Below, one piece after another: positions 2,628 to 37,203 of a stretch of 64,000 bases of DNA. The DNA comes from a virus, in IMG/VR virus record IMGVR_UViG_3300049215_000496, positions 1 through 64,000 of that record; one strand, written 5' to 3'. The number at the start of each line of letters is the position of its first letter. The first letter of the stretch is position 1. The translations under genes were made by a program, and so were the position numbers. Under the pieces are notes generated by a model. That model was not told the DNA's origin and made no database searches. It saw only the letters and a list, made by a program, of their open reading frames with translations.

Positions 2628-2682
2628 GTGAGAAGGGCAATAGTAGTTGATCTGGTGCCAACAATCTAGCATCATCCGATTC

Positions 2683-4788: not shown

Positions 4789-4790
4789 CA

Positions 4791-5441: not shown

Positions 5442-5600
5442 GCACTGCTGAATTTACAGCAAGTAGAATGTTTTGACGTACGCGGGGATTTATGGTTCAA
5501 ATTGAAGGCTGAAACACTGGTCTCTTGCCATGCTCGGGTACATGGCCTTTACAAACTTCCGTACCCTCGGGTGTCCCGCCCCGAGAAGAGGGCGTACAAA

Positions 5601-6086
5601 ATGTCTCAAACCCCGCGAAAAAGGCTGTACTTCGATTTCCGGTTGGGGAGTCTTCAGGATGAGGGCGGATCTTTCACTCGCCGCATCTTCAACTGTACGC
5701 AATTCACCGCGGGCACGCCCGGAGACCGCTACGGTGGGCTGCTTCAGGCACTGGAGTCTCTAACGATTGGGTCGCTGCCCGCCATCAAGGCACAGCGTGC
5801 AGTGCGCGCATACGTTAACCTGACGTTTTCTGGCGCCTCCTCGGTAAAGGCGTTTCCGGTCACGGCCAATTTCATTGGGCCTACGCCAGCAAACGCTACG
5901 GGGCCGGTCCAGTTGTTGCCATACCCTGCGAATCCGATTCTCGCGGGCAGCGAGGCGATTTACGGCACTGCAGGGCAGTTGAGGCATTTCGCGGTGCTCG
6001 TGCGGCTCGCGCCGTCTGTCGCTTTCGCGAGCACGGAAATCGCCGGAACGCTGTTCGTGGATCGCATGCACACGGTCGAAGTCTGA
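5601..6086 (+). CDS. Hypothetical beta-rich protein, possibly structural
   Basis: ATG 5601 after GAGGG; alternating hydrophobic strands. Confidence 0.5.
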   Translation: MSQTPRKRLYFDFRLGSLQDEGGSFTRRIFNCTQFTAGTPGDRYGGLLQALESLTIGSLPAIKAQRAVRAYVNLTFSGASSVKAFPVTANFIGPTPANATGPVQLLPYPANPILAGSEAIYGTAGQLRHFAVLVRLAPSVAFASTEIAGTLFVDRMHTVEV

Positions 6087-6090
6087 CGCT

Positions 6091-14522: not shown

Positions 14523-15257
14523 ATGCCAGACCCGAAGCTAATAATTCAGGACATGGGTGGTGCGAACAACGCGGACCTCAACGGAGCCCGCGCCCGCCTG
14601 ATGAAGGGGGGCTCCTGGAAGCGGCAGCGGATTATCGTTATTTTGCCTTCGGCCGACGTGATCCCGGCGAAGGTTGCACTGTCGTATTGGAACCTCGCGT
14701 TTCCACCGAACAACGGTGTGGTGCGAATTCTAGCTACAGGACAAGAGGTTGGTGAGGCGTACTCGAATGCGATAGCTGCTGTGCTTGCTGATCCAAACCT
14801 ATCGCAGTGGGAGTACATATTGACCATTGAGCACGACAACGCCCCTCCACCAGATGGTGTGATCAAGTTGCTTGATCGAATGGAGGCTCATCCAGAATTA
14901 AGCGTCATTGGGGGCGGCTACTGGACAAAAGGCGCTGGCGGTGTTTTCCAAGCGTGGGGAGATGTGAAGGATCCGATCATAAATTTTAGACCACAATTGC
15001 CAGATCCTAATGGCGGATTGCTTGAGTGTCATGGAACCGGGATGGGCTTTACATTGTATCGACTAGCTATGTTCAAAGACACGCGATTGCGAAGGCCGTG
15101 GTTCAAAACACAGAAAGAAGGCGGAGTGAGCACGCAGGATTTGTACTTCGCATCAGATGCCCGCAAATTTGGATACAGGTTTGCTGTTGATTGTTCGGTT
15201 CGTGTGGGGCATTACGATTTGCGTGGTGATTTCGGTGTTCCTGACATGATGTATTGA
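14523..15257 (+). CDS. GT-A fold glycosyltransferase-like protein (phage type)
   Basis: EYILTIEHDN, GTGMGFTLYR, PWF, QDLYF..G.RFAVDCSVRVGH. Confidence 0.7.
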   Translation: MPDPKLIIQDMGGANNADLNGARARLMKGGSWKRQRIIVILPSADVIPAKVALSYWNLAFPPNNGVVRILATGQEVGEAYSNAIAAVLADPNLSQWEYILTIEHDNAPPPDGVIKLLDRMEAHPELSVIGGGYWTKGAGGVFQAWGDVKDPIINFRPQLPDPNGGLLECHGTGMGFTLYRLAMFKDTRLRRPWFKTQKEGGVSTQDLYFASDARKFGYRFAVDCSVRVGHYDLRGDFGVPDMMY

Positions 15258-19021: not shown

Positions 19022-19103
19022 CGCATTATCCTACGAGGTTGAGCGGACCTGTGTCAATGCAAGCACTTGACCACAAGGCCACTCGTACCGCATCCTGTTG
19101 ATC

Positions 19104-20105
19104 GTGCTCTACGATTCGGCCGCGACGCTTCGCGCACACAGCGTGCGCACGCTCAAAGATCGCGTGGTGTATCTGCGCAAGTTGGTTTGGTGGGGGGACG
19201 GGGCGTTTCGACGGGGCGGTCCCCCAACGGGCGGCTTGCGCGATGCGATGATGCGGCAGATCGGTCTCGCTGTCACAGAGTCGTGCCGCGCACGCGACGA
19301 CATGTGTGAGTTGTCGTCGATCTTCGAATTCGTGAAGCGCAACGTACGGTACACAGGCGACATCAGTGACAAGGACACGTTTCAGTCTGCGTACAGAACG
19401 TTGCAGTACGGCGGCGGAGATTGTCTGCCACTGGACACAATTGTATGCAAAGCTGTTGCCGGTACAGTAACCCCAACGTTTGTTCCGTTGTACACGATCA
19501 TGGAAGGTGATCGGATCATGGCTAATGGCGCGGGAAATTGGACCCGCGTGTTGAAGTGTTGGTTTACAGGGCTGAAACAGATTTTAGTGTTCGAACTGAG
19601 CAATGGAACGGCACTTCGCTGCTCGCCAGAGCACAGACTTCTGTTTTTAAACGGTGGTGAGATTCGTGCCGCTCGCATTGAGGTTGGCGATCAGCTTCTT
19701 ACGCCGCGAAATGAGATACCATTAGAACACGGTACAATTCCTGTTTCGCTTGAAGGTGTTCGTGTTGTAGCTATAAAGGCTGATAAACATGCCAAGTTGT
19801 GCATGGATATAACAACAGATGCAGGTATGTTTTGGCTTCCAGAATCGGATGTGTTAGTTCACAACTGTGACGATCATTCTGTTCTCAACGCCGTGCTTGC
19901 AATGGAGAACGGATTCAGCACGCGCTTTCGCATAACAAGCAACACAGGCGCAACGTGGGACCACATATTCTGTATGGCCGGCGTTCCAAAAGGATCGCCG
20001 CGTAAGTGGGTGGCGCTCGACACGACGTTGCCGGGATCGAACAAGTTCGGTGTGCAACCACCGATGGTGAAGTATCAAGACTTCGATGTGACGGAGGCAA
20101 AGTGA
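19104..20105 (+). CDS. Transglutaminase-like cysteine protease, intein-containing
   Basis: IFEFVKRNVRYTGD, TLQYGGGD|CDDHS (after splicing), WDHIF, WVALDTT: Cys-His-Asp triad pattern. Confidence 0.8.
   Translation: MLYDSAATLRAHSVRTLKDRVVYLRKLVWWGDGAFRRGGPPTGGLRDAMMRQIGLAVTESCRARDDMCELSSIFEFVKRNVRYTGDISDKDTFQSAYRTLQYGGGDCLPLDTIVCKAVAGTVTPTFVPLYTIMEGDRIMANGAGNWTRVLKCWFTGLKQILVFELSNGTALRCSPEHRLLFLNGGEIRAARIEVGDQLLTPRNEIPLEHGTIPVSLEGVRVVAIKADKHAKLCMDITTDAGMFWLPESDVLVHNCDDHSVLNAVLAMENGFSTRFRITSNTGATWDHIFCMAGVPKGSPRKWVALDTTLPGSNKFGVQPPMVKYQDFDVTEAK
19422..19865 (+). mobile_element. Mini-intein (148 aa, no homing endonuclease)
   Basis: Starts CLPLDT, block B LRCSPEHRL, block F CMDITT, ends VLVHN followed by +1 Cys. 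Confidence 0.9.
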
Positions 20106-22096: not shown

Positions 22097-22126
22097 TTGA
22101 CTTTTCCCCGCAACTGCGGGCACACT
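22097..22126 (+). promoter_or_regulatory. Sigma70-like promoter for leader RNA copy 1
   Basis: TTGACT-18 bp-CACACT, 6 nt before ACATAA. Confidence 0.5.
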
Positions 22127-22132
22127 GGATGC

Positions 22133-22219
22133 ACATAACGGGAGGGTTCACCTCTCGAAACAGGCGATCAGAGTAACTGGCGCTCCGTGTAGGCACTCCC
22201 TACACCGAGCGCCTTTTTT
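22133..22219 (+). ncRNA. Structured leader RNA/attenuator, copy 1
   Basis: ACATAA, hairpin CGGGAGG/CCTCTCG, CGATCAGAGTAACTGGCG, terminator GGCGCTC-C-GTGTAGG..CCTACAC-C-GAGCGCC-T6. Confidence 0.65.
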
Positions 22220-22236
22220 CGTTTCCGGAGACCCAA

Positions 22237-22866
22237 ATGCTTCAGCACGGCGAATACGGTACCTACGGATCAATCCCTGCGCTCGTGATGCGCTCCGGGC
22301 AAATCCGCCCCGTTTCCCCGGACGACGCTCGACAGGATCTCAACACAGCGCATGTGCTGCGCATGACCGATTGGCGGATGAAAATTCCCGCCGAGCCGAT
22401 CGTCGTGCCGATCCCCGCGCCGCCGAGTCCGATCACGTCCGCTGTTGCACAAACCGTAACGGCAATCCCTCCGGCGCCGATCCAGACCGCGCCTGCCACA
22501 CCACTCCCCGCCGACGCGAGCGACAAGCACCACTGGCACACCGTGCACCGTGGTGGGGGCAGTCACGCGATGATTCGTGAGATCCAGCGGCTCCATCCGA
22601 AAGCAGGACTGCGCGGATCTAATGACGTCGAGCTGGGCGAGTGGAACGGACGTCCGATCGCCAAGTTCGAAATCGCGTCGAGCCCGCCGGCTGGTGGTGC
22701 CGAGATCGCCGCGGGTGCGATGCGCCAGGCTGCGCACGCATTGCGCACAAGCGGGCTCGCGTCGCTGCCGCCCGAGCTGATCGGCGGACCGCTTGCGGCG
22801 CTCATGCGCGGTGGTGCAGTCGAGCTTCATTTTCAGAACGGGGCCGTCGTGAGGACGGTTCTTTAG
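22237..22866 (+). CDS. Hypothetical protein, first gene of putative capsid operon
   Basis: GGAG RBS; Pro-rich linker. Confidence 0.6.
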   Translation: MLQHGEYGTYGSIPALVMRSGQIRPVSPDDARQDLNTAHVLRMTDWRMKIPAEPIVVPIPAPPSPITSAVAQTVTAIPPAPIQTAPATPLPADASDKHHWHTVHRGGGSHAMIREIQRLHPKAGLRGSNDVELGEWNGRPIAKFEIASSPPAGGAEIAAGAMRQAAHALRTSGLASLPPELIGGPLAALMRGGAVELHFQNGAVVRTVL

Positions 22867-22889
22867 AAACCACAACAAGGGAGAGAACG

Positions 22890-23015
22890 ATGGCCAAGAG
22901 ACATTGCCGGTTCGGTGTGAACAAGAAAACGAAAACGCACACGTGCTTGAAGCGCAAGCGCAAAGCACGAAGCCTGTCGGGGGCGCATCGCCATCGTCGA
23001 CGGCACTGCAGGTAG
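22890..23015 (+). CDS. Very basic 41-aa protein, putative DNA-condensing core protein
   Basis: MAKRHCRFGVNKKTKTHTCLKRKRKARSLSGAHRHRRRHCR with AAGGGAG RBS. Confidence 0.6.
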   Translation: MAKRHCRFGVNKKTKTHTCLKRKRKARSLSGAHRHRRRHCR

Positions 23016-23064
23016 ATTCACCCCGCCACGCAGCAACCCAACTTCAAAACAAGGACAAAAGAAA

Positions 23065-23598
23065 ATGAATCTCGGACGACATCGACGCCGCGGCTTCGGC
23101 GAGGGTTTTGGCGGCCCTCACATCGCAGGACCACTCATCGGTGGTGGTGCGACGCAGATCGGAATCATGCTGGCGCATCTCCACGCCAAGAAAAATCCTG
23201 CAGCGCTTCGGCATGCAGGGTTGCACGGGGCTGTGCTCGGGGGTCTCGTTTCGGGACTGCTCGCGCTCAGCTCGAAGCATCGCGCGACAGGCATCTCGGC
23301 TCTCGTGACCGTGGGCATCATGACGGCGCCTCGAATTCTGGAAGGCTTCATGGGTCTCGGGCACCGTCAAGAGCAGCTGAAAGAAGCCGAACTAGGCATC
23401 ATCACGCCGGAGCAGTACCAAGCGCTTTCGGGCGCCGGTGAAGAGCCCGCCGTGCAGCTGCTCGATTCGGGCTCGGGATCGACGGGCGTGTTGGGGACGA
23501 CCGTGGCGGAAGAGTATCACGGCTTGAGCGGTGCTGGTGACAGCCCCGTCGAGCTGCTGGGCAACGGCTTCGGCACGAACTTCCTGGCCGCGCAATAA
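23065..23598 (+). CDS. Putative major virion membrane protein
   Basis: AAGGA RBS; three hydrophobic segments; two LSGAG repeats; directly upstream of capsid candidate. Confidence 0.6.
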   Translation: MNLGRHRRRGFGEGFGGPHIAGPLIGGGATQIGIMLAHLHAKKNPAALRHAGLHGAVLGGLVSGLLALSSKHRATGISALVTVGIMTAPRILEGFMGLGHRQEQLKEAELGIITPEQYQALSGAGEEPAVQLLDSGSGSTGVLGTTVAEEYHGLSGAGDSPVELLGNGFGTNFLAAQ

Positions 23599-23722
23599 GG
23601 CATTCCGGACACGTGCTGCTGGTGATGCGGCAATAGTGCGTGTCCGTTTCAATCAATCCATCCGCATCAGGTCGTTGGGACCATACCGGCACAAGCCGAC
23701 CCCAACAGAGAGAAAATGACAC

Positions 23723-24511
23723 ATGGCGAATACTGGCACACTGACTGTGCGTGTTCGTGGGGTACCGTTCCCCATCGAATTCGCAGACTGGACGCACGAT
23801 CGTCTGTACCACACGGTGGAGTTCGAGGGCTCGGATGCCCAAGAGATCCAAGTGTTCATCGGAGCGGCGGGTTCGCCGATCCCCGGTGGAAGCCGCGTGC
23901 TGACGATCGTCGACACCAACATCCCGCGCTCGGGTGACACCGGGTTGCAGGAAGGCTGGGAGATGCTCATCTACTCGATCCAGATCGAGGTGGTGCGCGA
24001 GATGGGTCGAAACGCTGCGCAGCAGTCGTTCTCACTCCAAGACATTACGACGGCGGGTGGCGCGACGCAGTTCTCGCGCAACACGCACGTCGGCGGGTAC
24101 GATCCGATCAACGCCTCGGGCGGCGTGCTCTTCGACTTCCTGCGCAAGGTCTACCATCGGTTTCAGGTGAACCAGAAGGTGCAGAGCGAAGGTCCCGTCG
24201 AGAAGTATCCGCAAGGGTCGGGGATCAGCGTTTTCGGCGTCACCACGGGGTTGGAGGTCGCGAACAATGGCGTTCCTTCTCCTCGTGATCAGTCGGCGTT
24301 CGTTTTGCCGATCTGGCTGCGCCCGAACATTGCCTACGTGGGGAAGCTTGCTCCTCAAGCGGCGCTCGGGATTGGCGGTCCGGCTGCGGCGATGGGGCCT
24401 CCGTTCGCGACGGTTGGAGGTTACTTCGACTGGACGGGAATTCCTGCGACGAACCTCGGGTTTGACGTTCGGGAAACGCTCGAAGGTCTGTTGAAGCGAC
24501 CTGTTGTGTAA
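23723..24511 (+). CDS. Candidate major capsid protein (single jelly-roll-like, large)
   Basis: 262 aa beta-rich, strongly C/G-ending codons, followed by strong terminator; LYHTV..F..,TNI..G.L, EGL.KRPV end; fold is inference. Confidence 0.5.
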   Translation: MANTGTLTVRVRGVPFPIEFADWTHDRLYHTVEFEGSDAQEIQVFIGAAGSPIPGGSRVLTIVDTNIPRSGDTGLQEGWEMLIYSIQIEVVREMGRNAAQQSFSLQDITTAGGATQFSRNTHVGGYDPINASGGVLFDFLRKVYHRFQVNQKVQSEGPVEKYPQGSGISVFGVTTGLEVANNGVPSPRDQSAFVLPIWLRPNIAYVGKLAPQAALGIGGPAAAMGPPFATVGGYFDWTGIPATNLGFDVRETLEGLLKRPVV

Positions 24512-24557
24512 ATTCAACTATTTCACGCATTTAGCGTGAAGTTGTAGAATCCACTTC

Positions 24558-24600
24558 AAAACGCCCCGATGGCAATTGCCCATCGGGGCGTTTTCTTTTT
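24558..24600 (+). terminator. Intrinsic terminator
   Basis: AAAACGCCCCGATGG-caattgc-CCATCGGGGCGTTTTCTTTTT. Confidence 0.85.
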
Positions 24601-24627
24601 GCGGCACTTCGGACTATCCTTTCATCC

Positions 24628-25128
24628 ATGACCATGAGTGCAGACGCATCTCCCGCTCTTTCTTCTATGCTGGTCCAGCTCGGACCGCTGATTCACGGTG
24701 TGATGCAGCGGATCCAACCGATGCTGGATCAGCCTGTCGTGCGTTTTCCGTACGCGATCCCACTCGCGCGCAGTCAGGTGATCTCTGCAGGGCAGACGGG
24801 AGCCATCCTTGCACCGGCGGATTTTCAGTACAGCTTCGAGTATCCGTTCGAAGTTCACGAGCTGAAATTCTCGCAAGATCCCGCGCACACGTACCGCGAC
24901 TGGCGAATCGCGTTCATGGATCAGACGTTCAACCAGCCGCTGCAGAAGGCTTCCACGTCGATGGTCGCCGATCTCGTCGACGACAACACTGGCAAGTGGG
25001 TCTGGAAATTTCCGTGGACGATTCGGCCGAAAGGGGGCGGGTTCAACATCGTCGTCGACAACCTAGACACGGTCAATCCGATCACGGTCGACATCGCGCT
25101 CCTCGGGTACATGCTCCTGCCGCGTTGA
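24628..25128 (+). CDS. Candidate small capsid/jelly-roll protein
   Basis: ~166 aa beta-rich, ends ITVDIALLGYMLLPR; adjacent to capsid candidate. Confidence 0.45.
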   Translation: MTMSADASPALSSMLVQLGPLIHGVMQRIQPMLDQPVVRFPYAIPLARSQVISAGQTGAILAPADFQYSFEYPFEVHELKFSQDPAHTYRDWRIAFMDQTFNQPLQKASTSMVADLVDDNTGKWVWKFPWTIRPKGGGFNIVVDNLDTVNPITVDIALLGYMLLPR

Positions 25129-25130
25129 AA

Positions 25131-25550
25131 ATGGCCTTCGACAATCCAGCAATCGTTGGAGTTCGCGCTACGCCGGGATTTGTACCCGCGCCGAACTCCA
25201 AGCCGCTCGGTTCAAAGACCGGCGCCCCCCCGCGCACGCAGTTTTACAGCCGCCCGGTAATCCCCGCGACGATGCTCGGGCAGGGCGGAGGCTCACCGAC
25301 GCAAATCGTGGCGGGCACCGCGGAGAACCGCGTGGCAATCCTGACAGCACCGTTGATCGGCTTTACCGTGTACATCGGGGGCTCGGGCGTGACGCCACAG
25401 AATGGCCTTGCACTGACGCCAGGGCTCAACTACGAAGCGATCCTGCCAGGATTGCAGGAGCTGTTCGCGGTGACTGACGCACCGGTGTTCGTTCCGCTAC
25501 AAGTCCAGGTCGCGCCGGTACTGATGGCGGAGCGCGAACGGGAGACTTGA
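25131..25550 (+). CDS. Small beta-sandwich virion protein candidate
   Basis: NRVAIL..VYIGGSGVTPQNGLALTPG..LFAVT pattern common in phage structural proteins. Confidence 0.5.
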   Translation: MAFDNPAIVGVRATPGFVPAPNSKPLGSKTGAPPRTQFYSRPVIPATMLGQGGGSPTQIVAGTAENRVAILTAPLIGFTVYIGGSGVTPQNGLALTPGLNYEAILPGLQELFAVTDAPVFVPLQVQVAPVLMAERERET

Positions 25551-25554
25551 TCTC

Positions 25555-26133
25555 GTGCTCCCCCTGGCGCTGCTCGCCATCGCCGGAATGGTCACGGCGG
25601 CCATCAAGCTCACCGGTGGTCCGAATCTTACGCGCGTCGCCGCTGGACTGAGTCTGCCGCTTCAGTACGTGCAGCTCGCGTCGACGTGGGCGCGTAAGCG
25701 CAGCCTCCCCATCGAATGGGTGCTCGCGACCATTTTGGTTGAATCCGGGGGCAACGCACGTGCTGCTGGCGATGCTGACGGGCGGTCCGCCGGGCTCATG
25801 CAAGTAAACACCGTGGCGCACGCACAAGAAATGGCAGCAGCGGGCGTGACGCGTGCTCAGATGTTCGATCCCGCGACCAACATCGAATGGGGCACGAAGT
25901 ACATGGCTGCGTTCCGAGCGCAGATTCAAGCGGCTTTGGGTGGCCGCCGCTCGCCCGCGCCGCTCGACGAGATTCTGCGCTTGTCCTACAAAGGCCCCGC
26001 GGCGGTGCTGTCCGCGCTGAAGCGTGGCGAAGATCCAACCAGCACGATTTCATGGGCGCCTGCGGCGCTGTCAAACTGGCGACAGGCGATGGCGCGCGTT
26101 ACAGCTTTGACGCGCAGCAGATCAACGGCTTAG
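25555..26133 (+). CDS. Lytic transglycosylase (SLT domain) with N-terminal anchor
   Basis: VESGGNARA (catalytic E), SAGLMQV, FDPATNIEWGTKYM. Confidence 0.85.
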   Translation: MLPLALLAIAGMVTAAIKLTGGPNLTRVAAGLSLPLQYVQLASTWARKRSLPIEWVLATILVESGGNARAAGDADGRSAGLMQVNTVAHAQEMAAAGVTRAQMFDPATNIEWGTKYMAAFRAQIQAALGGRRSPAPLDEILRLSYKGPAAVLSALKRGEDPTSTISWAPAALSNWRQAMARVTALTRSRSTA

Positions 26134-26384
26134 TCAGACTGCGCAGACCGGCGTGCACACGCTTTGGCTTCCCAGAACTTCCTGAAAGCGCGATTGCCTG
26201 CTTCACAGCGCTGCTTGGATGGCTGCTGTGATTCCATCACGCGTTGTTCTTTGGTTCCTGCTTTCAGCAATTCAGAACAACTGGTGAGACGATCGGCACC
26301 GTACTCCGTCGCGCGATGCCGCGCGGTGTACATTTCTTCTGCGATACTGCGCAAGCACGCTTCCTGGTCAGGAAGGGCTTTCAC
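26130..26384 (-). CDS. Small Cys-containing helical protein
   Basis: ACLRSIAEEMYTA..RCEAGNRAFRKFWEA; paralog at 28143..28419. Confidence 0.65.
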   Translation of the reverse strand: MKALPDQEACLRSIAEEMYTARHRATEYGADRLTSCSELLKAGTKEQRVMESQQPSKQRCEAGNRAFRKFWEAKACARRSAQSD

Positions 26385-26495
26385 CTATGCAGGTAGCACC
26401 GGCCGACTATGATCGTGTAAAACTAGCACAGCGGCCGGGGGTTGCGTCATGCCCCGTCACAGGCGTAGAGTAATAGCCATGCGGGGGAGCCTCCA

Positions 26496-26975
26496 ATGAT
26501 CTGCCGGACCTACGTCGTCAAGATGCCCACCAGTTCCTCGTCTACGCCGTTGGACATCTTGGTGCAGGATTCTCCCGGAACGCAGGACGCGCCCATTGTC
26601 GTTGGCGATGCTGCGTACTACGAGTGGCGCGGGCGCCCGGTGCGCATCCCGGTCGAATCGGGAGGTGCACCCCCATCCGCCGCCGCCATCACAGCAGGGT
26701 TCGTGCCGCGCTTTCGCCTGGGGTGCCTGGTGAGCCTCACACCGATTCGCACGGGCATCGCATCTGATCTACCTGGCATGCAGCTTTCGTCGTCGCTGGC
26801 GTCGTTGGCCAGCACGGACGGCGGTCCGGTGATCAACATCCCGGCGTTTGCCGATCCTGCGGGTGGCCCTGCGATCCGCTTGACCGGTGGTGTCGGCACG
26901 GCGGGCGGGTACTACCTCGTGGCGTTGAGGATTCCCGAGGCGAAGGACGAGGACCGCGAAGGCACGGGCGTGTGA
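26496..26975 (+). CDS. Hypothetical protein
   Basis: RBS GGGGAG; promoter TTGCGT-18-TAGAGT at 26442-26471. Confidence 0.55.
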   Translation: MICRTYVVKMPTSSSSTPLDILVQDSPGTQDAPIVVGDAAYYEWRGRPVRIPVESGGAPPSAAAITAGFVPRFRLGCLVSLTPIRTGIASDLPGMQLSSSLASLASTDGGPVINIPAFADPAGGPAIRLTGGVGTAGGYYLVALRIPEAKDEDREGTGV

Positions 26976-27400
26976 TGATCATCTCCCTCGGTGCAGGCTA
27001 CCCGCTCGTCCCCGTGCCCTATCCGGATGACAATCCGGATCACGGGGGCGGCCCGATCCGCAAGAGCCCCAACAACGCGCTGCCCGCGCACGCCGGCAAC
27101 ATGGTGTATCGCACGCTGTTGCTCGTCACGCGTGAAGCCGAGGCAGGCTCGCGCTGGCCTGGTGATCTGTCCAAGATGATGTTTCTGCCCGACGGCCGCC
27201 TCGTGCCGGCCAAGCCGTACGCGTTCGATATGTTCAACGGTGCTGGTGAATCTTCGAGCGGCTTTCTTCACACGCTCGTGCCCGCGCTGTCGATGTTCGC
27301 GGGCGCAGGTGCCGGGTACAAGCTGTCGAGCAAGCATCGTGCGTTGAGCACGTTTGGTGGTGCTGTGGTCGGGGGAATTCTTGGTCTGATTTTTCGGTGA
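26972..27400 (+). CDS. Membrane protein with two C-terminal TM helices
   Basis: LSSKHRALSTFGGAVVGGILGLIFR end. Confidence 0.6.
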   Translation: MMIISLGAGYPLVPVPYPDDNPDHGGGPIRKSPNNALPAHAGNMVYRTLLLVTREAEAGSRWPGDLSKMMFLPDGRLVPAKPYAFDMFNGAGESSSGFLHTLVPALSMFAGAGAGYKLSSKHRALSTFGGAVVGGILGLIFR

Positions 27401-27404
27401 TCCT

Positions 27405-28115
27405 GTGATCGATCAGATTGGTCGACAACTGATTATGCAGCGCAACGGCGTGTCGTTGGGCGCTGCTAAGGTGCTCCCGCCCGCCGATCCAAAGATCGTG
27501 CAGGTATCGAACATGATACAGACCAATCGCCAAGCACGCCAGTTGTTGGGTATCGCCGCGACACACATCCAACAGGCGTATCAGGTCGTTGAAACAATTC
27601 CGTCAAATATGTGGTACGGTCTGCTGCGCTGGATGCGCTATTTCGATGGTACGAGTGACTTAGCTAAGCAGGCACGTTTGCTGTTGGATCGAACCAACGC
27701 ATACGCACAGAGAGTGTACGCCACGCTGCCTGACAATGACGCGCCAGTGTCTTCGATAGGCAAGAAACAAGTCAACACAGCGCTAGCGCAAGCTTCATCC
27801 AACCTGCAACTTGTGTCGTCATCGGCCAATGAGATTCACAAGAGCTTGATCGATGACTTGATCGATGCGGTGAACGCATGGATCGCTGGAAACGTGCCAA
27901 GCGGATTCCCTAAGCTGCCGAAAGCGACAGGCAAGATCATTGTCTACGTTGCAATTGGAGCTGCAGGACTTGTTGGACTGTTCGTGTTGGGCAAGCTGCT
28001 GCACACAATCGCGCTAGGGTCTGCGGAGCTGATTGAGGCAGAGAATGCTGCGATGGCTATCGCCGATGCGCAGCGCCGAAAGCGCAGCTCGCGCTCCGTG
28101 CTGTCGATTGCATAG
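27405..28115 (+). CDS. Helical membrane-anchored protein
   Basis: TM IIVYVAIGAAGLVGLFVLG; basic tail. Confidence 0.6.
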   Translation: MIDQIGRQLIMQRNGVSLGAAKVLPPADPKIVQVSNMIQTNRQARQLLGIAATHIQQAYQVVETIPSNMWYGLLRWMRYFDGTSDLAKQARLLLDRTNAYAQRVYATLPDNDAPVSSIGKKQVNTALAQASSNLQLVSSSANEIHKSLIDDLIDAVNAWIAGNVPSGFPKLPKATGKIIVYVAIGAAGLVGLFVLGKLLHTIALGSAELIEAENAAMAIADAQRRKRSSRSVLSIA

Positions 28116-28142
28116 CGGTCTTTTTTGGCCTATAGTATTTCT

Positions 28143-28419
28143 GTGGCCGGAAAACACAAAAAGATTGCAGTCGCTATCCCCTCGTGGGTAAACGCGCTCA
28201 CACCGAATGACGCGTGCCTGCGCAGCGTGGCTGAAGACGTGTACACCGCGAAAGCGTTTGCTGAAAGTTACGGGGCAACTGAAAAGTCCAAAGTGTGTGG
28301 GCTTGCTCAGCGCCGCGAACAAATCGCTGCGTATGTTGGAGAACTCGAAAGCGGGGGACAAGCTGCGCTGCCGAGAAGGTGATCGGGCAGCGCGCAAGTT
28401 CTGGGAGGCAACACAATGA
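28143..28419 (+). pseudogene. Frameshifted paralog of 26130..26384
   Basis: ACLRSVAEDVYTA..YGA in one frame and CVGLL..RCREGDRAARKFWEA in +1 frame; extra A in AAAA 28282-28285. Confidence 0.7.
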
Positions 28420-28580
28420 ACCCTCAAAAATCCAACGCAGGAACAGTGGCACTCGTGCTCGGTGGCCTCGCGGCTGTCGGAACGGCAGCAGCCGTAGCGT
28501 TCAGCGGAAGCAAGAAACCTGCCCCGCGTCTAGGATCTGTGCGCCGCCCCGTGCGCAAGCCCTGTGGTTGCGGCCGATAA
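28416..28580 (+). CDS. 54-aa membrane peptide ending KPCGCGR
   Basis: Own translation MNPQKSNAGTVALVLGGLAAVGTAAAVAFSGSKKPAPRLGSVRRPVRKPCGCGR; GGAGG RBS. Confidence 0.6.
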   Translation: MNPQKSNAGTVALVLGGLAAVGTAAAVAFSGSKKPAPRLGSVRRPVRKPCGCGR

Positions 28581-28621
28581 GCTTGCGCTCGCGGCCCGCG
28601 GCGTGATTCAATCGTCTGTGA

Positions 28622-28716
28622 ACATAAGCAGGTTTCTCCTGCATCACCGACGATCAGAATAACTGGCGTCCAGTGGAGTGGATGGTTTCAAACCACCCTT
28701 CCGCCTGGCGCCTTTT
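28622..28716 (+). ncRNA. Structured leader RNA/attenuator, copy 2
   Basis: ACATAA, hairpin GCAGG/CCTGC, CGATCAGAATAACTGGCG, long imperfect hairpin closing CTGGCGCC-TTTT. Confidence 0.6.
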
Positions 28717-28758: not shown

Positions 28759-31700
28759 ATGTTAGACGGCAGTTACGTCACAGGTTACAACGCTGAATCA
28801 AACAATCTGATCCAGGGCGAGCTTGTACGAGTCTACGCCGTCGGGGGCCAAAAACGCGTTGTTCGCGCGCAAGCGGATGCCCCAATCCACCTCCAGGGGC
28901 TGATCGGTGTCGTCTTTTCTGGTGTGGTTCGTCCGGGGGGGCCTGTCGCGGTGGCCGCTGTTGCCAGCGCCGCTGTACGCATTCTTCTCGATGGAGGACT
29001 CGCGCCGCAGCCGAGCAACACACTGTATGTATCGGTGGTGAATCCCGGGCGTGCGACCACGATCCCGTCGGTTGGCACTCCCGCGATCGCTGTTGTATTC
29101 GATGCAACACAGTATTCCCGCGACAACTCGGTCGTCGGTATCCTGACTCAAACCGCGACGGGTTTGGTTGGAGGTCCCGGAGCGACCGGAGCTACCGGCG
29201 CGACAGGCGCGACCGGAGCTACCGGTGCGACAGGTGCAGGTGCAACAGGTGCAACAGGCATAGGCGCGACGGGCGCGACAGGTGTGACAGGCGCTACCGG
29301 ATCTCCAGGTGGCGCGACGGGCGCGACAGGAACGCAAGGCGCGACAGGTATTCCGGGCAGCCCCGGCGGAGCTACTGGCGTGCAAGGCGCGACCGGAGCT
29401 ACCGGAGCTACCGGAGCTACCGGAGCTACCGGCGCGACGGGCGCAGGCGCAACAGGTGCCACCGGTGTGCAGGGTGCAACAGGCACTACAGGGTCCGCTG
29501 GCGGGGCCACTGGTGCCACTGGTGCAACCGGCGCCACCGGCGTGGGTGCCACTGGTGCAACTGGCGTGGGGGCCACGGGCGCCACCGGGTTGACAGGCGC
29601 AACAGGATCAAACGGAACAGTAGGGCCGCCCGGTGCGGATGGATCTGACGGCACTGACGGGCTCGATGGCATCGACGGCGCTACCGGCGCGACGGGAGCC
29701 ACGGGTGTAGGCGCGACGGGTGCCACTGGTGTCCCCGGTAGCCCTGGTGGCGCGACGGGCGCGACAGGAACGCAAGGCGCGACAGGTATTCCGGGCAGCC
29801 CCGGCGGAGCTACTGGCGTGCAAGGCGCGACCGGAGCTACCGGAGCTACCGGAGCTACCGGAGCTACCGGAGCTACCGGAGCTACCGGAGCTACGGGACC
29901 GATGGGGCCTCCGGGCGCGGATGGATCTGACGGCACTGACGGGCTCGATGGCCCTCCAGGTGCCACGGGCGCTGGCGCAACGGGTGCGACAGGCGCAACC
30001 GGGGCACTGGGTGCTACCGGCGCGACAGGTGTCGGACCTGGGTTTGGATTTGCGCAACAGAATTGGGTGTCTCTTGTTGATGGTGTATCGCCGCTCGTTC
30101 CGCACGCGGATCATCAACACACAGCATTTCCATCCCCCGACATGTTTGTCGTTTATGCTGTCGATCAAGACGGAGTAGTTCTGCCGGGAAACGACACGAC
30201 AGGACAGCCTGGCACGTCCATTTATCAGGCCACGCCAGCATTGGATATGAGCAACGCATTGGCGTTTGCCGTTGCCACACCATACAAGACATTGGAGCAG
30301 GTTGGACGCCAACTTCCGCGTGAGGGCAACAACGCAACGCTGGTCGTACTGATTCGTCCGCGTATTGGCGGCGCTACGTATAAAAAGATCGATGGTGTGT
30401 CCGATCAAGACATGGGGTGGATGAGTCAGCTAACGGGTTGGAAGCGCGTACTGATTCGCGCAACCAACACCTTTCTGAACGACACTGCTGACAAGGTAGC
30501 GTGCGGATTCCAAACGGTAGCTTCTACATTCGCGGGCGGCTACAACGCACTGGCTGGCAGCACTCCAAGCACACTGAATTGTCAGAAACAGGGGGGAGCG
30601 GCTGCGGGTTTTCCTGCTGAAGCGGGCGGATCGAGCGCGATATCCGGCAAGCGAATTCGATTCACATCAGGCGCACTGATCAATCAAACAGCTATGATTT
30701 GGAAGAATACAACCACACAGTTGGTTCTTTCGAATGCTTTGACTGGAGTTCCGAATCCAGCAGACAACTTTTTAATTGAAGAGCCCGGACTGCACGTTGG
30801 AAACTTTACACACAGTGTGAATCATAACGGAAGTGCCGTCGCACTTGCAGGTTTCGGATCTACGATCGGGTCGGCTACAGTATATGGCCCTGGCGGCATC
30901 AACTACGCCGGCAGCGAATCCTCTGGTGACATATCTTTCACAGGGCTGTCAACAGCCACACTGACACGATCGTATACAGACGAACTTGGAAATGATGTTG
31001 TTGTAGGCGTATCGCTGCGCGCAGCAAGCAACGTGAGCGCGTCTCACATCGGTGATTTGACACACGCCTCAGGGTACACGCACGTTCGAACCGCAATATC
31101 AAACAGCGTGTCACTGAACGTTGGTGCTGGGTGTGTGTACAGGAAAGGTGGATCAATCCAGGCAGGTGCCGGGTCCAGCAAATACGGTGGAGCGGGCAAT
31201 GCCGCGTACATCGCCGGAAGTCAAAATGTCGCCGGAACACAAAAGCTGCGTGTGACACAGGCGCTTATTGCCGATGGATTCACCGGGGCTTTCGAGCTTC
31301 AGGGCATTTCTGGTTCACTTGTGTACGGCATTGATTTCGCGAATTGCACCGTTCCATTGATCGACTTTAAGTCATCCGGCGCTGTGTTTGACGTTGACGG
31401 CATAACGTCATTAGACGGGGGCAACACTAACACTGTATTGAATCTGACGTCAGGATCTAATCAGACCATAGCTGTTGGCCTCATAGCGGCGGAAATGACG
31501 GCGGCGGCAGCGCTTGGCGATATACGTATGGCTGGGTTGGAGATCGCCCCATTCACGCTATTGATCGATGCTAACTATGTTGACACAGTTGGCAACAACG
31601 TGTACGGCCAAGGTGGCATAGTTATATGTAACGATGTTGTTCAATCCAATGTTAGTGCAGGAACTATAGCAGCATACAGTGTATTGCGTGTAACCGGCAA

Positions 31701-34560
31701 CAATCAAGTGGCTCTTGCGCAAGCTCCTGCAAATATAGATGCCTTTGGGGTCGCCCAAATGGCTTCCTCTTCTGGAAATACGGTTCTGACTGCCGTGGCT
31801 GGTCCTGTGCCGATGTTGTTCAACGCGCCAAACCCCACGCCGGGTAACATCGCGTATCTGTCTACAACTGCTGGGCAAGCACAAGACACATTTGTCAATA
31901 ATTCTGTGCGCCTCGGACGCATTATCGGGCAGCTCAATGGCAGCGTAGGCTTGGTGGCGCTCGACATCGATCTGCAAACAGTATTTACCCCCGCTCCGGC
32001 CTCCGCCATGGTTGCGCTGGTTGACTACGATGCGGTGATCGCCAATGGAACAGGTGGATTCGGTGTCGCCAGTGACGTAACCGGGCGCTTCGGATATGCA
32101 CCTTCCACAGGCGTGCTTACCACAGACATTCAAACAGCGTTGAATTCCGCCATGCTCACGCCATTCAAAACGCTTGAGCAGGTTGGAAAATCGTTTCCGC
32201 GTGGAGCCGGAAACGGATCGAATTTGAGGATTTTCATCCGACCACGGATAGGATCCGCTCCATACCGAAATATAGCTAACACCGCAGACCAAAACGGTGT
32301 TGACTGGTTGTCCGGCATCAGCGGATGGAATTCCGTGGTTATTCGCGGTTCGCTGAATCTGACCAACACACAAGAAGATGTTACAACAGCCGGGTACTAC
32401 CCTACAGCAGGAACGAATCCTGGTGGGTACAATGTAACGGCAAGCACCGTTGGCGGTACAAGTTACACAACATGCCAATTGAATGGAGGTGGTGCTCCCG
32501 GCTTCACAGCTGAATCTGGTGGATGGTCCGTGCTACTAGGTAAACGTATTCGTTGGTCTGCCACTACTACCACGCCTGCGTTGAGAAACACCACGTCCGT
32601 GATCAATGAAGTTCTAACTAATGTAGGACTCGTTCCATCCAACCAAATATTTGTTACGCCGGTTGCATCGGATGTATTCTTTATTGAATCTCCCGGAGTG
32701 GTAGTTGGCAACTTAACACATTTTGCTGGTGTTAACGGTTCAATGTCTTTGACAGGTTTCGGCACAACCACGGCACTGCAAACACTGTCAAATGAAGGAC
32801 CGGCCACATACAACGGAATAACTGTGAGCGGCGTCGGGTTTATGGCCATCACCGGAGCAAATTCAGGATCTATATCCTTGAATGCTTTGGACTACAACGG
32901 AACGGCTGGAAACGATATAACAATCGGACAAGCTACAAACGTCATTATTCAAAACAGCGCATACAGAAATGTTCGTATGCGCATAACGAGTCCGGCTACT
33001 AGGGTGACGTTTGGATCTGGTTGTGTGATCAGCGGGCCGTTCGAGAATCTTGCCACAATTGACAACCGGATGTTCACGGTCGGTGGCCAATTTATTCCAA
33101 CAGCCGCGCCGCTGCGGTACACACAGTTCGTGTACGTGACAGGACAGGCTGCAATGAATTTGTGCGGTGGTGGTGGAAACATCGGGGGCGTACGAATTGA
33201 CAACTGTACGGCAGGCGTATCTTGGGGATTGATAAATTTCCAAGGAATTCCGTTTGCAAATGCGCCTACGGGCGAGCCCTCAGGTGTGTGGGCCATCGAT
33301 GGCCTAACAGGCAGCGGAAATACAGGATTTATTTTAAATAGCGGGCACACCGGAACGGCGCGCAATGCGGGATCTGATTTTACGGTAGCGTGGGCCGGTC
33401 TACAGCCCAACACGATTACAGCGAACCCACCGGTAGGAACGTTGCCTGCTAACAGCGTGTCGTGGGGAAATTGTCAAACATCGCTTGCACCCTTGCAACA
33501 CACTAATGTGTATTTAAGTGGATGCAATTTGACAACCAGTGGCATAGGCACTGTGTTCAAAGATGTAATCAGAACAACAATACATTCCACCGCCGTTGAC
33601 ACCGACATCGCACTGTTCCGCGTTGTAAGAAACGCTCCCGTAAATTCACTGACGTATTACAACGCCAATGCTGTTCCTGCTTCCGCGGATTTGTTGGTGA
33701 ATTGCACAGGAATAACTGGTGTTTCAATAAGTGATGGCGGGTATGTTGGACAGGACGTAATAGTAGCCACGGATGGTGTTGTTCCGATAGAATTCACAGC
33801 AATCCCTGCTTACACGGACGTTGGGCAACCAGTATGGTTATCTGCTTTGACTGGAGCTAATGCCGGAAAGGTACAAACAACACCCGGAACAGTACCGGTG
33901 ATGATCGGGACGTTATACGAGTGCTACGGAACAACGATAGGGCGCGTAAAGTTGAATGCGCTGCAGCCTCAATCGACATTGATAGGCGCAACTGGTGTAG
34001 CTGGCGCCGCTGGCGCCCCGGGTGCCGCAGGTGCCACGGGTGCAACGGGCGCGGGTGGTGTCGGATCACAAGGCGCCACCGGCGCAACGGGCACTGCAGG
34101 CGCCGCGGGAACGCAGGGCGCAACGGGCGCGACCGGTGTCATGGGTGCAACCGGGGCCAATGGCCCAATCACGCTCGCCACGTTCGCGATCGGGTATGAG
34201 AGCACTGTTGGTGTGCAGATACTCACAGGAATCACATACGGCCTTCCACCGTACACGATCACCACACCGTTCGGCTTTGCCATCCAATGGCGTGTTCCGC
34301 AAAACCTGAGCAACATCGAAGTTTGGGTTGAAACAGACAGCATCATCGATTTGGGTGCTGCTGGTTCGTTCACGATTGAGCTGCTCAAGAACGGTGTCCC
34401 TTCCGGAGCCGGGAATGTGATCAACAGCATCGGAGCAACCACGCTGGTTGGTGGACCGATCGCTTACGTCGCAGGCGATCGGTATGGATTCAATGTCACA
34501 GGTGGTGGCACCGTCGGCGTAAGCGTCAGCTTCACACTGTTCGCACGAGGTATTCCGTAA
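28759..34560 (+). CDS. Giant collagen-like fibre/receptor-binding protein (~1933 aa)
   Basis: Start set by paralogy with 36210 ([16 protein letters not shown]); long (GAT)n collagen tract; two duplicated TP(Y/F)KTLEQVG modules; second collagen tract; C-terminal head. Confidence 0.75.
29170..30030 (+). repeat. Collagen-like Gly-Ala-Thr repeats with 9-bp tandem arrays
   Basis: GGAGCTACC x4 (29395-29430) and x6 (29833-29886); block starting 29308 duplicated at 29746. Confidence 0.9.
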
Positions 34561-35505
34561 GTGCGCATAGTCCAGGTGTTGCCCCCTGCTGGCGCAGGAG
34601 GCTTCGAGGAACTTGGGGCGAGCTTCAGCTCGATGCTTGCAGCATGCACCAGCAACCTTTCCGTGCACGTCAGCAGCATCGCCGCTGTGCTGCAAACAAA
34701 ACCCGCGTGCGATGTCGTGGCACATTCGTTCTGTGTGGCCAACCCTGAGATACTGAAAGCGTATCCACACGCGCGGCATGTAGAGATAATTGTCGGCAGC
34801 GATCTGGCCCCCACGCCCGGTGTTGATCGCGTCTATCCGTCCTGGGCGTGGCTGAATTTTTTGTGGGGTAAGTACGAGGCAAGGCACCTCGGGCGCGTAG
34901 GCGATGTCATGATCCCGCATTGGGTCAATCCAAGCGACTGGCCTCTAGGAGCGAAAACCGAGGACTTTTTGCTGTTCGTCGGGCGCCTCGTACCGCAAAA
35001 ATTCGGGCTGCTCCGTGCAATCGCAAGAGCGCTTCCGCGGCAAAAAATCGTAGTCGCAAGTGCGGGTGACCCGCGCGAGGTTGCAGGTATTCCCAACATC
35101 GATGTGATTGGATTCGCCGCGCCGAACAAGCTCGCGGGGCTCATGGGCAAAGCCAAAGCGGTGCTTTGTCCATCTCTTTACTGCGAGCCGTTTGGGCTTG
35201 CCGCAGTCGAGGCAGGGCTCACCGGTGCCCACGTGATCGCATCGAGGGTAGGCGGTTTCGTAGAAACACTGCCACCCAATTCAACACTGTGTAATCCAAA
35301 CAAACTAGAAGACTGGCTGGCAGCAATAGCTTCCACAGCGTGTAGCAATGATGAACGCGTTAAGCGTCGCGTTTGGCATATGTCGCACCACTCCCCGGAA
35401 GTGATTGCGCCTCAATACATCAAGTTTCTTTGTGCTGAAAAACGATCACCAGTACCGGTGTACGGACCACGTGGTACCGTTGCTGCAACATTAGAAAGGG
35501 TATGA
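34561..35505 (+). CDS. GT4-like glycosyltransferase
   Basis: LLFVGRLVPQK, PSLYCEPFGLAAVEAGLTGAHVIASRVGGFVE. Confidence 0.85.
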   Translation: MRIVQVLPPAGAGGFEELGASFSSMLAACTSNLSVHVSSIAAVLQTKPACDVVAHSFCVANPEILKAYPHARHVEIIVGSDLAPTPGVDRVYPSWAWLNFLWGKYEARHLGRVGDVMIPHWVNPSDWPLGAKTEDFLLFVGRLVPQKFGLLRAIARALPRQKIVVASAGDPREVAGIPNIDVIGFAAPNKLAGLMGKAKAVLCPSLYCEPFGLAAVEAGLTGAHVIASRVGGFVETLPPNSTLCNPNKLEDWLAAIASTACSNDERVKRRVWHMSHHSPEVIAPQYIKFLCAEKRSPVPVYGPRGTVAATLERV

Positions 35506-35508
35506 AAA

Positions 35509-36162
35509 ATGTCAACGACGAATGCCAAGAACCCAAAAATATTTTTTTCAGGTCCATTCACCGCTGCTGGTGCTACGTTGTACACGGTTCCGGCAGGAAC
35601 CAACGCAAACATCAAGCAAATACGAATTGCCAGCAACGTCAACAATGACACAACTGTCAACATAATAATGCAGTCTTATGCCGCTGCTCAAAACGTGGTG
35701 GTTCCAGCCAGGGGTGTGTTGAATTTGCTGTTTTCTGACGCGAATTTTACCCCTGGGCAGCAAATTCTCGCGTCATCTTCCGGAATATCCGGTGACTTAA
35801 CAGTGCTTATAGACGGAGAAGAATACTATCTGCTCAACACACGTTTTTCCGCTGTTGGGGTCGATGCTGCTCAACACACGCTGTTCACGGTTCCGGCCAA
35901 CGAACAGTATCTGATCAAGCACATACGCATAGCCAACAGCGACGGCTCGCCACACGGGATGCAACTGTCTATTGGACCATTGGCGGCCCCTCTGGCGTAT
36001 CTCAGATCGAATGGCAACGGTGATACTGTGCCTGCAGGCGGCGGTGTGGACATGTGGATGCAAACTCCTGTGAACACAGGGGAAATATTCCAATATCAAG
36101 CAGGTGCTGTTGGCGTCATGAACATCACCGTCGATATTGAGCGAAAGATTCTGACAGCCTAG
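35509..36162 (+). CDS. Two-domain beta-rich virion protein candidate
   Basis: Tandem TLYTVPA..IKQIRIAS and TLFTVPA..IKHIRIAN domains. Confidence 0.6.
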   Translation: MSTTNAKNPKIFFSGPFTAAGATLYTVPAGTNANIKQIRIASNVNNDTTVNIIMQSYAAAQNVVVPARGVLNLLFSDANFTPGQQILASSSGISGDLTVLIDGEEYYLLNTRFSAVGVDAAQHTLFTVPANEQYLIKHIRIANSDGSPHGMQLSIGPLAAPLAYLRSNGNGDTVPAGGGVDMWMQTPVNTGEIFQYQAGAVGVMNITVDIERKILTA

Positions 36163-36209
36163 AAATCGAATTCGTAAAAACCTGCACGCCGTTTTGGAGG
36201 GCACCCGAA

Positions 36210-37190
36210 ATGTTAGATGGCAGCTACGTCACAGGGTACAACGCTGAGAGCAACAACCTCATCCAAGGAGAGGTTGTGCGCGTGTTTTCGTCCGGTGGGC
36301 AGAAGCGCGTCGTGCGCGCGCAGGCTCCGAGCGCGCTGCAAGGGCTCCTAGGCGTGGTCCACTCGGGCGTGGTTGGCCCGGGTGGACCTGTGGTCGTTGC
36401 AGCTATCGCATCCGCGGCCGTCAAGATCCTGCTCGATACAGGGCTCACGCCGATTGACGGAGGAACGTTATACGTGTCGGCTGTGACCGCCGGACGGGCG
36501 ACGACCACCATGTCCGGCGCAGCGCTCGCCATCGCATACGACATCTCGAAGTACGCAACGACCACATCCGTGATCGGCATACTGGCGCAAAATACCGGAC
36601 TGGGCGCAACGGGTGTTGGTGGAGCCACTGGTGCGACCGGAGCAGCAGGCGCAACGGGCACAGCCGGAACGGCTGGAACAGCAGGCGCAACGGGAGCTAC
36701 CGGTGTGGGCGCGACCGGCGCTACCGGTGCCGCGGGCACTCCTGGAGGAGCAACAGGGGCTACCGGTGTGGGCGCGACCGGCGCTACCGGCGCGGTGTTC
36801 TTTTCGCCGTTTCTGTTTGGGCGCCAAGCCAGTCAGATCCCCAGTGATTCGAATTGGTCCTTGTCGCCGAGTGGCTTCGACATCGTCAGCGACGGTCCGG
36901 GTTGGATGACATTCCAGCAGACCAATTTCGTTGATCTGGAAATGTTAATAACGTTCTTGACGTGGGTCGGCGGCGGTAACGCGAGCTTTCAGGTGCAGCA
37001 CAGAGCTACCCCGGGCGTCGGCGCTTGGACCACCGACTGCACCATATCGATTCCAAGCGGCACAACAGGTCGACAGCACACCACGGTGCCTGCCACGATC
37101 CCAGCAGCGGCCGAAGTGCGGCTGCTCGCGTCCGTGCCTGCGTCCACGGACCTGACCGTGATCGATTGGTCGATCTTCCTGTTCAACTAG
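36210..37190 (+). CDS. Short collagen-like fibre, N-terminal paralog of 28759..34560
   Basis: Near-identical N-terminal ~130 aa, GAT tract, distinct C-terminal head; GGAGG RBS. Confidence 0.75.
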   Translation: MLDGSYVTGYNAESNNLIQGEVVRVFSSGGQKRVVRAQAPSALQGLLGVVHSGVVGPGGPVVVAAIASAAVKILLDTGLTPIDGGTLYVSAVTAGRATTTMSGAALAIAYDISKYATTTSVIGILAQNTGLGATGVGGATGATGAAGATGTAGTAGTAGATGATGVGATGATGAAGTPGGATGATGVGATGATGAVFFSPFLFGRQASQIPSDSNWSLSPSGFDIVSDGPGWMTFQQTNFVDLEMLITFLTWVGGGNASFQVQHRATPGVGAWTTDCTISIPSGTTGRQHTTVPATIPAAAEVRLLASVPASTDLTVIDWSIFLFN

Positions 37191-37203
37191 ACATTCGTGC
37201 TGT

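Follow-up and report, generated by a model that had tools for sequence, protein, structure and literature searches.

The timing of phage late-gene expression is understood mainly from a few models, namely Q, N, put and late sigma factors. Q acts via the DNA and a sigma-dependent pause, and the nut sites of lambda and P22 consist of boxA and a boxB hairpin with a GNRA-like pentaloop. The ribonucleic antiterminator (RAT) hairpins of the BglG/SacY/LicT systems are ~29 nt long, have internal loops and are bound by CAT-domain proteins, and ANTAR target RNAs carry two tandem hexaloop hairpins, with A1 and G4 in each, of which the second overlaps a terminator. The putL and putR RNAs of HK022 are described as factor-free elements of ~70 nt, with two long irregular stem-loops, conserved bulges and a triplex, that bind the beta' zinc-binding domain of the polymerase, putL lying just after PL (PMC9378689). 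For the gene transfer agent (GTA) of Bartonella, the published description reports a Q21-like antiterminator, BrrG, an attenuating leader and a required -10-like element. Here, we analyzed the first 64 kb (hereafter, the window) of an 89,081-bp IMG/VR virus record with direct terminal repeats (IMGVR_UViG_3300049215_000496, labelled G000), in which two copies of a structured leader RNA precede units of virion-module genes. We see about an even chance that this leader is a factor-dependent antitermination gate, in which a mini hairpin serves as the recognition element and competes with the terminator to which it is fused.

The two copies lie at 22133-22219 and 28622-28716 on the plus strand and share the layout that the original prediction had read from them. 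In copy 1, a sigma70-like element, a promoter as far as its sequence indicates (TTGACT at 22097-22102, an 18-nt spacer and CACACT at 22121-22126), is separated by six bases from ACATAA (22133-22138), the 5' tag and predicted transcript start. There follow hairpin 1 (CGGGAGG/CCTCTCG, 7 bp, loop GTTCA; 22139-22157), a single-stranded linker of 10 nt ending in GCGA (22158-22167), the mini hairpin UCAG-AGUAA-CUGG (22168-22180), and a predicted intrinsic terminator with a 7+7-bp stem (GGCGCTC...GAGCGCC, 22179-22213) and six T (22214-22219), the first two G of whose stem also belong to the mini hairpin. Copy 2 repeats this order, with ACATAA at 28622-28627, hairpin 1 (GCAGG/CCTGC) at 28628-28642, a linker reaching 28653, the mini hairpin UCAG-AAUAA-CUGG at 28654-28666, and a predicted terminator with a long bulged stem (28665-28712) and four T (28713-28716). 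Hairpin 1 thus differs in sequence between the copies with its pairing kept, as had been noticed. The 18-nt core with a CAG/CTG mini-stem also stands, with the amendment that the stem has 4 bp (UCAG/CUGG, including one U-G pair) and that its last two G are the start of the terminator.

As had been proposed, each copy is preceded by a promoter-like element, with a weak -10 in copy 2, and followed by the first gene of a virion-module unit. The element ahead of copy 2 (TTGCGC at 28583-28588, an 18-nt spacer and TTCAAT at 28607-28612, plus strand) lacks A at position 2 of the -10 and does not fit the form nAnnnT; TTCAAT or TTTAAT recurs ahead of other copies. When up to three mismatches were allowed, the 18-nt core matched the window only at the two leaders (0.11 matches expected; two or more in 0 of 100 shuffles), and the core was found at just these two sites in the entire 89,081-bp record. 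Compared with shuffled sequences, the leaders fold much more stably, with z = -5.5 (copy 1) and z = -3.6 (copy 2). Copy 1 occupies a 188-bp divergent gap between a minus-strand open reading frame (ORF) starting at 22048 and a plus-strand ORF starting at 22237, and the ATG follows the U-tract at a distance of 17 nt (copy 1) or 42 nt (copy 2). Since this leaves no space for a further promoter, the two units can be transcribed only through these terminators.

When the 209-aa ORF that follows copy 1 was used as a protein query, four IMG/VR contigs with 53-56% identity and lengths of 94-122 kb were retrieved (G001-G004), and in four of four the leader lies directly upstream of the homologue. A gapped pattern built from these copies matched one to three times per genome in the five genomes, and a reversed control pattern had 0 matches. 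Searched against IMG/VR contigs, the pattern gave no additional contig; it also matched 21 stretches of soil-type metagenome contigs and one 108-kb contig of a Vicinamibacterales metagenome-assembled genome (MAG). Two of the 21 matches (L042 and L044) have neither promoter nor hairpins, were recovered by neither of two covariance models, and are attributed to chance. The first model (R1) found two copies in G000 and three in each of G001, G002, G003 and G004. With the 262-aa capsid candidate of the window as query, three more distant genomes were reached at 62-73% identity (G005-G007): G006 and G007 each had one R1 match, and one diverged copy in G005 was spotted by eye upstream of the homologous gene. 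The second model (R2), which included hairpin 1, gave 40 matches, of which 37 are distinct, over 0.94 Mb.

The leader module therefore recurs one to three times per genome in seven related virus records, as well as on soil metagenome contigs, and it is kept where proteins share merely 30-56% identity. The count of two copies in the original prediction is right for G000 and does not hold generally, with three copies in relatives and at least four on one metagenome contig. Other routes to relatives were unproductive: named phages had no megablast match to 12 kb of the window, a protein-pattern scan with a 324-aa ORF gave no relative, and an exact-core scan of viral contigs returned two matches, both within coding sequence of unrelated AT-rich phages and regarded as chance. 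The sequencing runs listed as containing this DNA are DNA runs of moss and soil metagenomes, with no RNA run among them. The 108-kb contig from the MAG (L046, DASZFS010000280.1, Vicinamibacterales/Acidobacteriota) carries one leader ahead of a gene of the 209-aa class and is either a hint at the host or a mis-binned virus.

Throughout the copies, the module opens with a sigma70-like promoter and 5'-ACAUAR; next come a variable hairpin and a pyrimidine-rich linker with YGA at its end, and a 4-bp mini hairpin and an intrinsic terminator complete it. ACATAR is invariant in the 25 pattern-found copies, for which the pattern demanded it, and is also present in the four protein-found copies. Hairpin 1 has 5-9 bp without conserved sequence and, in 31 of 35 copies, begins at base 6 or 7; its loops (4-9 nt, mostly 4-5 nt) have no conserved base. 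The linker is usually 10-12 nt long, starts with A-Y-C-Y and ends with G-Y-G-A (last bases G in 25 of 29 and A in 27 of 27). The mini hairpin has 4 bp and a loop of 4-5 nt that reads A-R-N-A-W in 32 of 35 copies, most often as AGUAA (13), AGCAA (9) or AAUAA (5), with rarer forms besides. The terminator, which is predicted from a GC-rich stem followed by a U-tract on the transcribed strand, starts with the final two to four bases of the mini hairpin, and the T-run is present on the plus strand only. In all copies the mini hairpin abuts or overlaps the terminator, mostly by 2 nt, and in three (G002:72764, G005 and G006) the overlap is the full 4-nt 3' arm of the mini hairpin.

Of 35 distinct copies, 24 have a promoter-like element of the form TTGnnn-N16-19-nAnnnT whose end lies 5-10 nt ahead of ACAUAR, and 22 of these begin with TTGAC; at random positions of these genomes the rates are 1.3% for the TTGnnn form and 0.1% for the TTGAC form. 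Several of the non-matching copies have TTCAAT or TTTAAT as the -10, or a truncated flank. Upstream of ACAUAR, the copies of one genome have only the -35 and -10 hexamers in common, so that conservation begins at the predicted transcript start. This bears on a DNA-directed gate of the Q/AlpA/BrrG type, in which a viral DNA-binding protein would load on a promoter-proximal paused polymerase and the RNA hairpins would be secondary. The constitutive-looking promoter, short leader and terminator before late genes are indeed arranged as in lambdoid PR'-tR' and, as described, in the BrrG system of Bartonella; ACATAR would occupy +1 to +6, and Q families are so diverse that negative Pfam results weigh little. 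Against this, no upstream sequence beyond the generic hexamers is common to copies within a genome, ACATAR satisfies the -10-like rule (A2, T6) in no register, and no Q or AlpA family match above cut-off was found in five genomes. Together with the signs of selection on RNA given below, we consider a gate of this type very unlikely.

Two minus-strand copies ahead of fibre genes in G003 (L071; 4339-4430 and 16058-16145) show which part of the module is the core. Their promoter, TTGAC-N18-CATCAT, lies ~20 nt further downstream, a degenerate ACATAR falls inside the promoter spacer, and the predicted RNA starts just before the mini hairpin. These RNAs would keep the mini hairpin and terminator only, which points to this fused pair as the core of the device. 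Within a genome, moreover, stems, loops and flanks are alike: all three copies of G001 read CCAG-AGCAA, those of G002 combine CUCG with a loop of AAAAU, AAGAU or AAAAA, and those of G003 have CUA-CCUG and loops of the ACA type, with the CUA flank and this loop type also found in G007. Judged from these sequences, the likeness fits a genome-specific reader.

All three helices covary. RNAalifold recovered the terminator from a plain MAFFT alignment, in which 9 of its 14 pairs show compensatory changes. In the model-fitted alignments, 97% of cells pair, as compared with 75-77% in shuffled alignments and 34-50% when partners were slid, and the covariation score was reached by 0 of 500 shuffles. 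For hairpin 1 (37 distinct copies), all 7 modelled pairs have changed on both sides, with 93% of cells paired. In the mini hairpin, 100% of cells are paired over 37 distinct sequences; pair 3 occurs as all four Watson-Crick types (AU 22, CG 7, UA 6, GC 2), pair 4 as GC 36 times and UA once, and the two outer pairs are exclusively C-G or U-G. In the terminator, 3 of 5 base pairs at the stem base and all 7 upper pairs covary. Because the U-G pairs would be A-C on the opposite strand, selection acts on the RNA of this strand, and these pairs and the compensatory changes argue against a DNA-directed gate. Conserved copies and covariation in related genomes had been named as the check on the original prediction, and both are present.

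The mini hairpin is weak (mean -2.3 kcal/mol). Its equilibrium probability is 0.38 before the terminator is transcribed and falls to 0.02 in the full leader, because the terminator needs the same G residues; the two structures are thermodynamically exclusive. The mini hairpin thus loses the competition on its own, yet it is unbroken in 37 distinct copies, with its loop and flank kept, and the simplest explanation is that a partner holds it. A pairing of the linker with the 5' arm of the mini hairpin, which would make the linker an "anti-antiterminator," was possible in 12 of 29 copies and in neither window copy, and was rejected as a general feature.

We therefore favor a gate that would operate through hairpin competition. 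Host RNA polymerase would initiate at the sigma70-type promoter and transcribe a leader of 85-95 nt that carries 5'-ACAUAR, hairpin 1, the linker and the mini hairpin. By default, it would halt at the intrinsic terminator, and the fibre and capsid-candidate genes would stay off. Perhaps late in infection, a factor acting in trans, most likely an RNA-binding protein encoded by the virus, would read the YGA flank and the A-R-N-A-W loop and keep the mini hairpin closed. Held in this way, the mini hairpin would withhold its 3' arm, i.e., the first two to four bases of the terminator stem, which would leave the C residues beside the U-tract unpaired and allow read-through. In intrinsic termination, the stem pairs adjoining the U-tract matter most. 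These viruses also encode a tyrosine recombinase (integrase) and a Cro/CI-type helix-turn-helix protein, and a gate that prevents strong promoters from doing harm while the virus is silent is therefore plausible. A bolder version, which we offer tentatively and think unlikely, is that the mini hairpin is the dock for an undescribed viral RNA-binding antiterminator family, or a protein-free RNA device acting on polymerase, that would switch on all virion genes of an uncharacterised, possibly tailless soil-virus lineage of 90-120 kb, the two to four terminated leader RNAs per genome doubling as small RNAs in the silent state.

Several observations weigh against the hairpin-competition gate. With a mini hairpin of only 4 bp that mostly shares no more than two G with the terminator, the leverage would be slight, except if the bound factor also works by steric hindrance or through the polymerase. 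The two G003 copies, together with two metagenome copies, have no ACAUAR and hairpin 1 in the predicted transcript, and this part of the module is accordingly dispensable. Gene conversion could equally account for the uniformity of copies within a genome. The pattern or models behind most copies required parts of the motif, which introduces bias, and both large alignments were model-fitted; the pattern left both bases of pair 3 free, and the copies free of this bias (protein-found, including G005 and G006) show the same compensations (CCAG/CUGG, CUCG/CGGG, CCUG/CAGG, CCGU/ACGG). Furthermore, a third unit of G000 (5440-6086), with a gene of the ~160-aa class at 5602-6086, has a promoter (TTGACG, 17 nt, TTCAAA) and no mini hairpin or terminator, although its homologues carry a leader copy in G001, G002 and G004. 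The gate at this unit was lost or never gained, and the gate is not obligatory.

No factor was found, which also counts against the gate: among the Pfam families Q (PF06530, PF03589), NusG, ANTAR, CAT_RBD and AlpA (PF05930), none scored above cut-off in G000-G004. The best ANTAR score was 13.6 bits, below cut-off and in one of the five genomes, and CAT_RBD (PF03123) had no match at E<=1 in the five virus genomes, a host-encoded protein being outside this search. Nothing of relevance emerged when conserved ORFs without annotation were scanned against Pfam and PHROG. For a small arginine-rich N-like protein, there was no family match among the conserved small ORFs scanned, which are a subset of the small ORFs from crude gene calling. 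PDB sequence searches with two candidate proteins gave nothing, and no conserved protein follows the loop classes, in that none groups G003 with G007. A sigma-70 family protein was ruled out as the common partner, since it is present only in G000 (51552-52307, minus strand, regions 2, 3 and 4; no homologue in G001, G002 and G004) and in G003, which has two sigma-like genes. As a separate observation, a 268-aa acidic protein (57845-58651, minus strand) is conserved in all eight genomes and has a C-x2-H...C-x2-C motif near its C-terminus; this zinc-knuckle-like protein had no family, PDB or usable Atlas match.

The identified genes after the leaders are virion-module genes only. Among the 35 distinct copies, 14 precede a gene of the 209-aa class, eight a fibre gene with a common N-terminal domain, two a 163-aa ORF, one a gene of the ~160-aa class (with two more from a separate tally), and one the 262-aa capsid candidate, which has its own leader copy in contig L040; the remaining copies have no gene class assigned, as the choice of ORF was crude and unreliable there. 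In the window, unit 1 consists of genes for 209, 177 and 262 aa, all behind copy 1. The first (22237-22866, plus strand) has no family match, and its homologues in the relatives all have a leader upstream. Copy 2 precedes a giant fibre gene of 1933 aa (28759-34560, plus strand) with matches to the Pfam collagen repeat and to tail-fibre families of PHROG, and fibre genes with the same N-terminal domain come after leader copies in G002, G003 and G004.

The last gene of unit 1 (23723-24511, plus strand) encodes the best conserved protein of the clade, with 82-89% identity among genomes whose other proteins share 30-60%; its 185 homologues lie on metagenome contigs that reach about 130 kb. This 262-aa protein had no family match, a PDB search with its profile returned none, and weak Atlas leads point to PRD1-type P2/P3 capsid families. 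Of the original prediction, the structured and conserved leader is upheld; the stops at the terminators, regulated read-through and the late timing of the genes stay predictions, and the capsid role of unit 1 a candidate assignment.

The position of the copies also bears on the possibility that there is no switch at all. A constitutively leaky terminator might set a low, fixed expression, or the terminated transcript of 85-95 nt might itself be a small RNA, in which a 5' hairpin is followed by a single-stranded seed and then the terminator, and read-through would give the mRNA. The leader does have the shape of a typical base-pairing small RNA, and its linker is single-stranded and conserved; copy 2, with only four U, may be leaky, and G000 runs one unit without a leader. 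The short PR' transcript of Stx phages (StxS) is reported to work as a small RNA (PMC7547250). What a leaky terminator leaves unexplained is why a 4-bp hairpin that loses thermodynamically against the terminator is kept with covariation. Nor does it account for the conserved loop and YGA flank or for the strict position ahead of virion genes, and a stand-alone small-RNA gene need not always sit 17-80 nt before a start codon. We thus regard the absence of a switch as unlikely.

Unit 1 closes with a terminator that has a perfect stem of 15 bp (24558-24594, plus strand). A long perfect hairpin (14-18 predicted pairs) with a U-tract, differing in sequence, follows the 262-aa gene in six of eight genomes (the window, L094, L097, L098, L099 and L100). 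A promoter-like sequence, TTCACG-17-TAGAAT, ends 8 nt ahead of this terminator in the window. Such unusually long closing stems would suit processive antitermination of the nut/put type, in which the leader RNA would stay on the polymerase, either by itself or helped by host Nus factors and a small viral protein, so that this and later terminators are ignored, and the overlap with the leader terminator would be incidental. The small hairpin with a conserved 5-nt loop is boxB-like, and the promoter-proximal, multi-copy, two-hairpin RNA resembles HK022 putL/putR as described (PMC9378689). In pLS20, long stems are reported to let terminators resist processive antitermination (PMC10325885). The leader terminators, however, are also long (interrupted stems of 12-14 bp), so that stem length does not discriminate. 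Moreover, the mini hairpin is never apart from a terminator in 37 distinct copies, a fusion that a nut or put site does not need, and a factor-independent put-like element immediately before a terminator would have no regulatory purpose. No boxA-like element was seen in the leader, and the stems of put are described as long and irregular with conserved bulges, whereas hairpin 1 is sequence-free and absent from some copies. Processive antitermination is therefore, in our judgment, fairly unlikely, and competition of the mini hairpin with the terminator remains the reading we prefer.

The virion module is common to all eight genomes, and the leader goes with it. The replication module of G000-G004 (DNA polymerase A, helicases and SNF2) has no BLAST match in G006 and G007 and shows 27-29% identity in G005. 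Glycosyltransferase genes are abundant around the fibre genes of the window (2647-7332, 14523-15257 and 34561-38376), and a UDP-glucose/GDP-mannose dehydrogenase gene lies near them on the minus strand (39229-40554). A Pfam intein-splicing match lies inside a transglutaminase-like ORF (19098-20105).

The original prediction did not recognize the leader as a known riboswitch, and Rfam 15 had 0 matches at gathering score in the 64-kb window. With E up to 10, the two leaders drew only chance-level matches of 12-19 bits, against cut-offs of 45-98. This bears on a small-molecule riboswitch, with which a conserved leader and a terminator as expression platform would agree. The lack of any Rfam match even at that threshold speaks against it, and so do the mere ~25 conserved nt, the lack of conserved internal loops or junctions, and a hairpin 1 that is sequence-free and dispensable; a riboswitch is extremely improbable. 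Our literature search met no description of the motif; a 2023 catalogue of 8,495 structured-RNA candidates from IMG/VR (PMC10690425), whose supplementary tables were outside the search, may contain it. The leader is thus a compact RNA motif, strongly supported by covariation and outside Rfam, and a repeated candidate gate ahead of fibre and capsid-candidate genes in an environmental lineage without a cultured member and with almost no annotated proteins. A 13-nt hairpin fused to a terminator offers a testable mechanism and a bait for the factor and, if the proposed mechanism is true, a small portable terminator switch.

Among the described systems, RAT/BglG is similar in arrangement: in both cases a small leader hairpin sits on the 5' arm of a terminator, is mutually exclusive with it and weaker, and would need a bound protein. 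The RAT overlap is deeper, however, and here a 13-nt hairpin (4 bp) with a YGA flank overlaps by 2-4 nt; no CAT_RBD protein was found in five genomes, and the genes concerned are viral virion genes with several copies of the leader per genome. Lambdoid late control (PR', 6S RNA/tR' and Q) likewise has a constitutive-looking promoter and a short terminated leader directly before structural genes. It differs in that the conserved, covarying part here is RNA, with two to four gates per genome and no Q family match; relative to Q, AlpA and BrrG, there is also no common promoter DNA element, and ACATAR is without A2/T6 in every register. ANTAR targets similarly have two tandem hairpins of which the second has bases in common with the terminator, whereas the loops here, 4-9 nt and unconserved in hairpin 1 and 4-5 nt in the mini hairpin, are not A1/G4 hexaloops.

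With N-nut of lambda and P22, the leader has in common a small hairpin with a conserved, purine-rich 5-nt loop and loop types that vary among related viruses. Its loop is nevertheless A-R-N-A-W, starting with A rather than G and closed by G-C, the linker is just pyrimidine-rich with no boxA-like block, the hairpin is fused to a terminator, and the gates precede virion genes instead of early genes. HK022 put also comprises two related promoter-proximal stem-loop copies per genome, as reported (PMC9378689), and the leader would probably act on host polymerase too; in contrast to put, hairpin 1 is sequence-free, the second hairpin has 4 bp and the terminator is immediately next. Judged by sequence and predicted structure, the leader departs from each known family in the defining features tested. 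Its logic is nearest to that of RAT/BglG-type antiterminator hairpins and lambdoid PR'-tR' gates, and its form recalls boxB and put.

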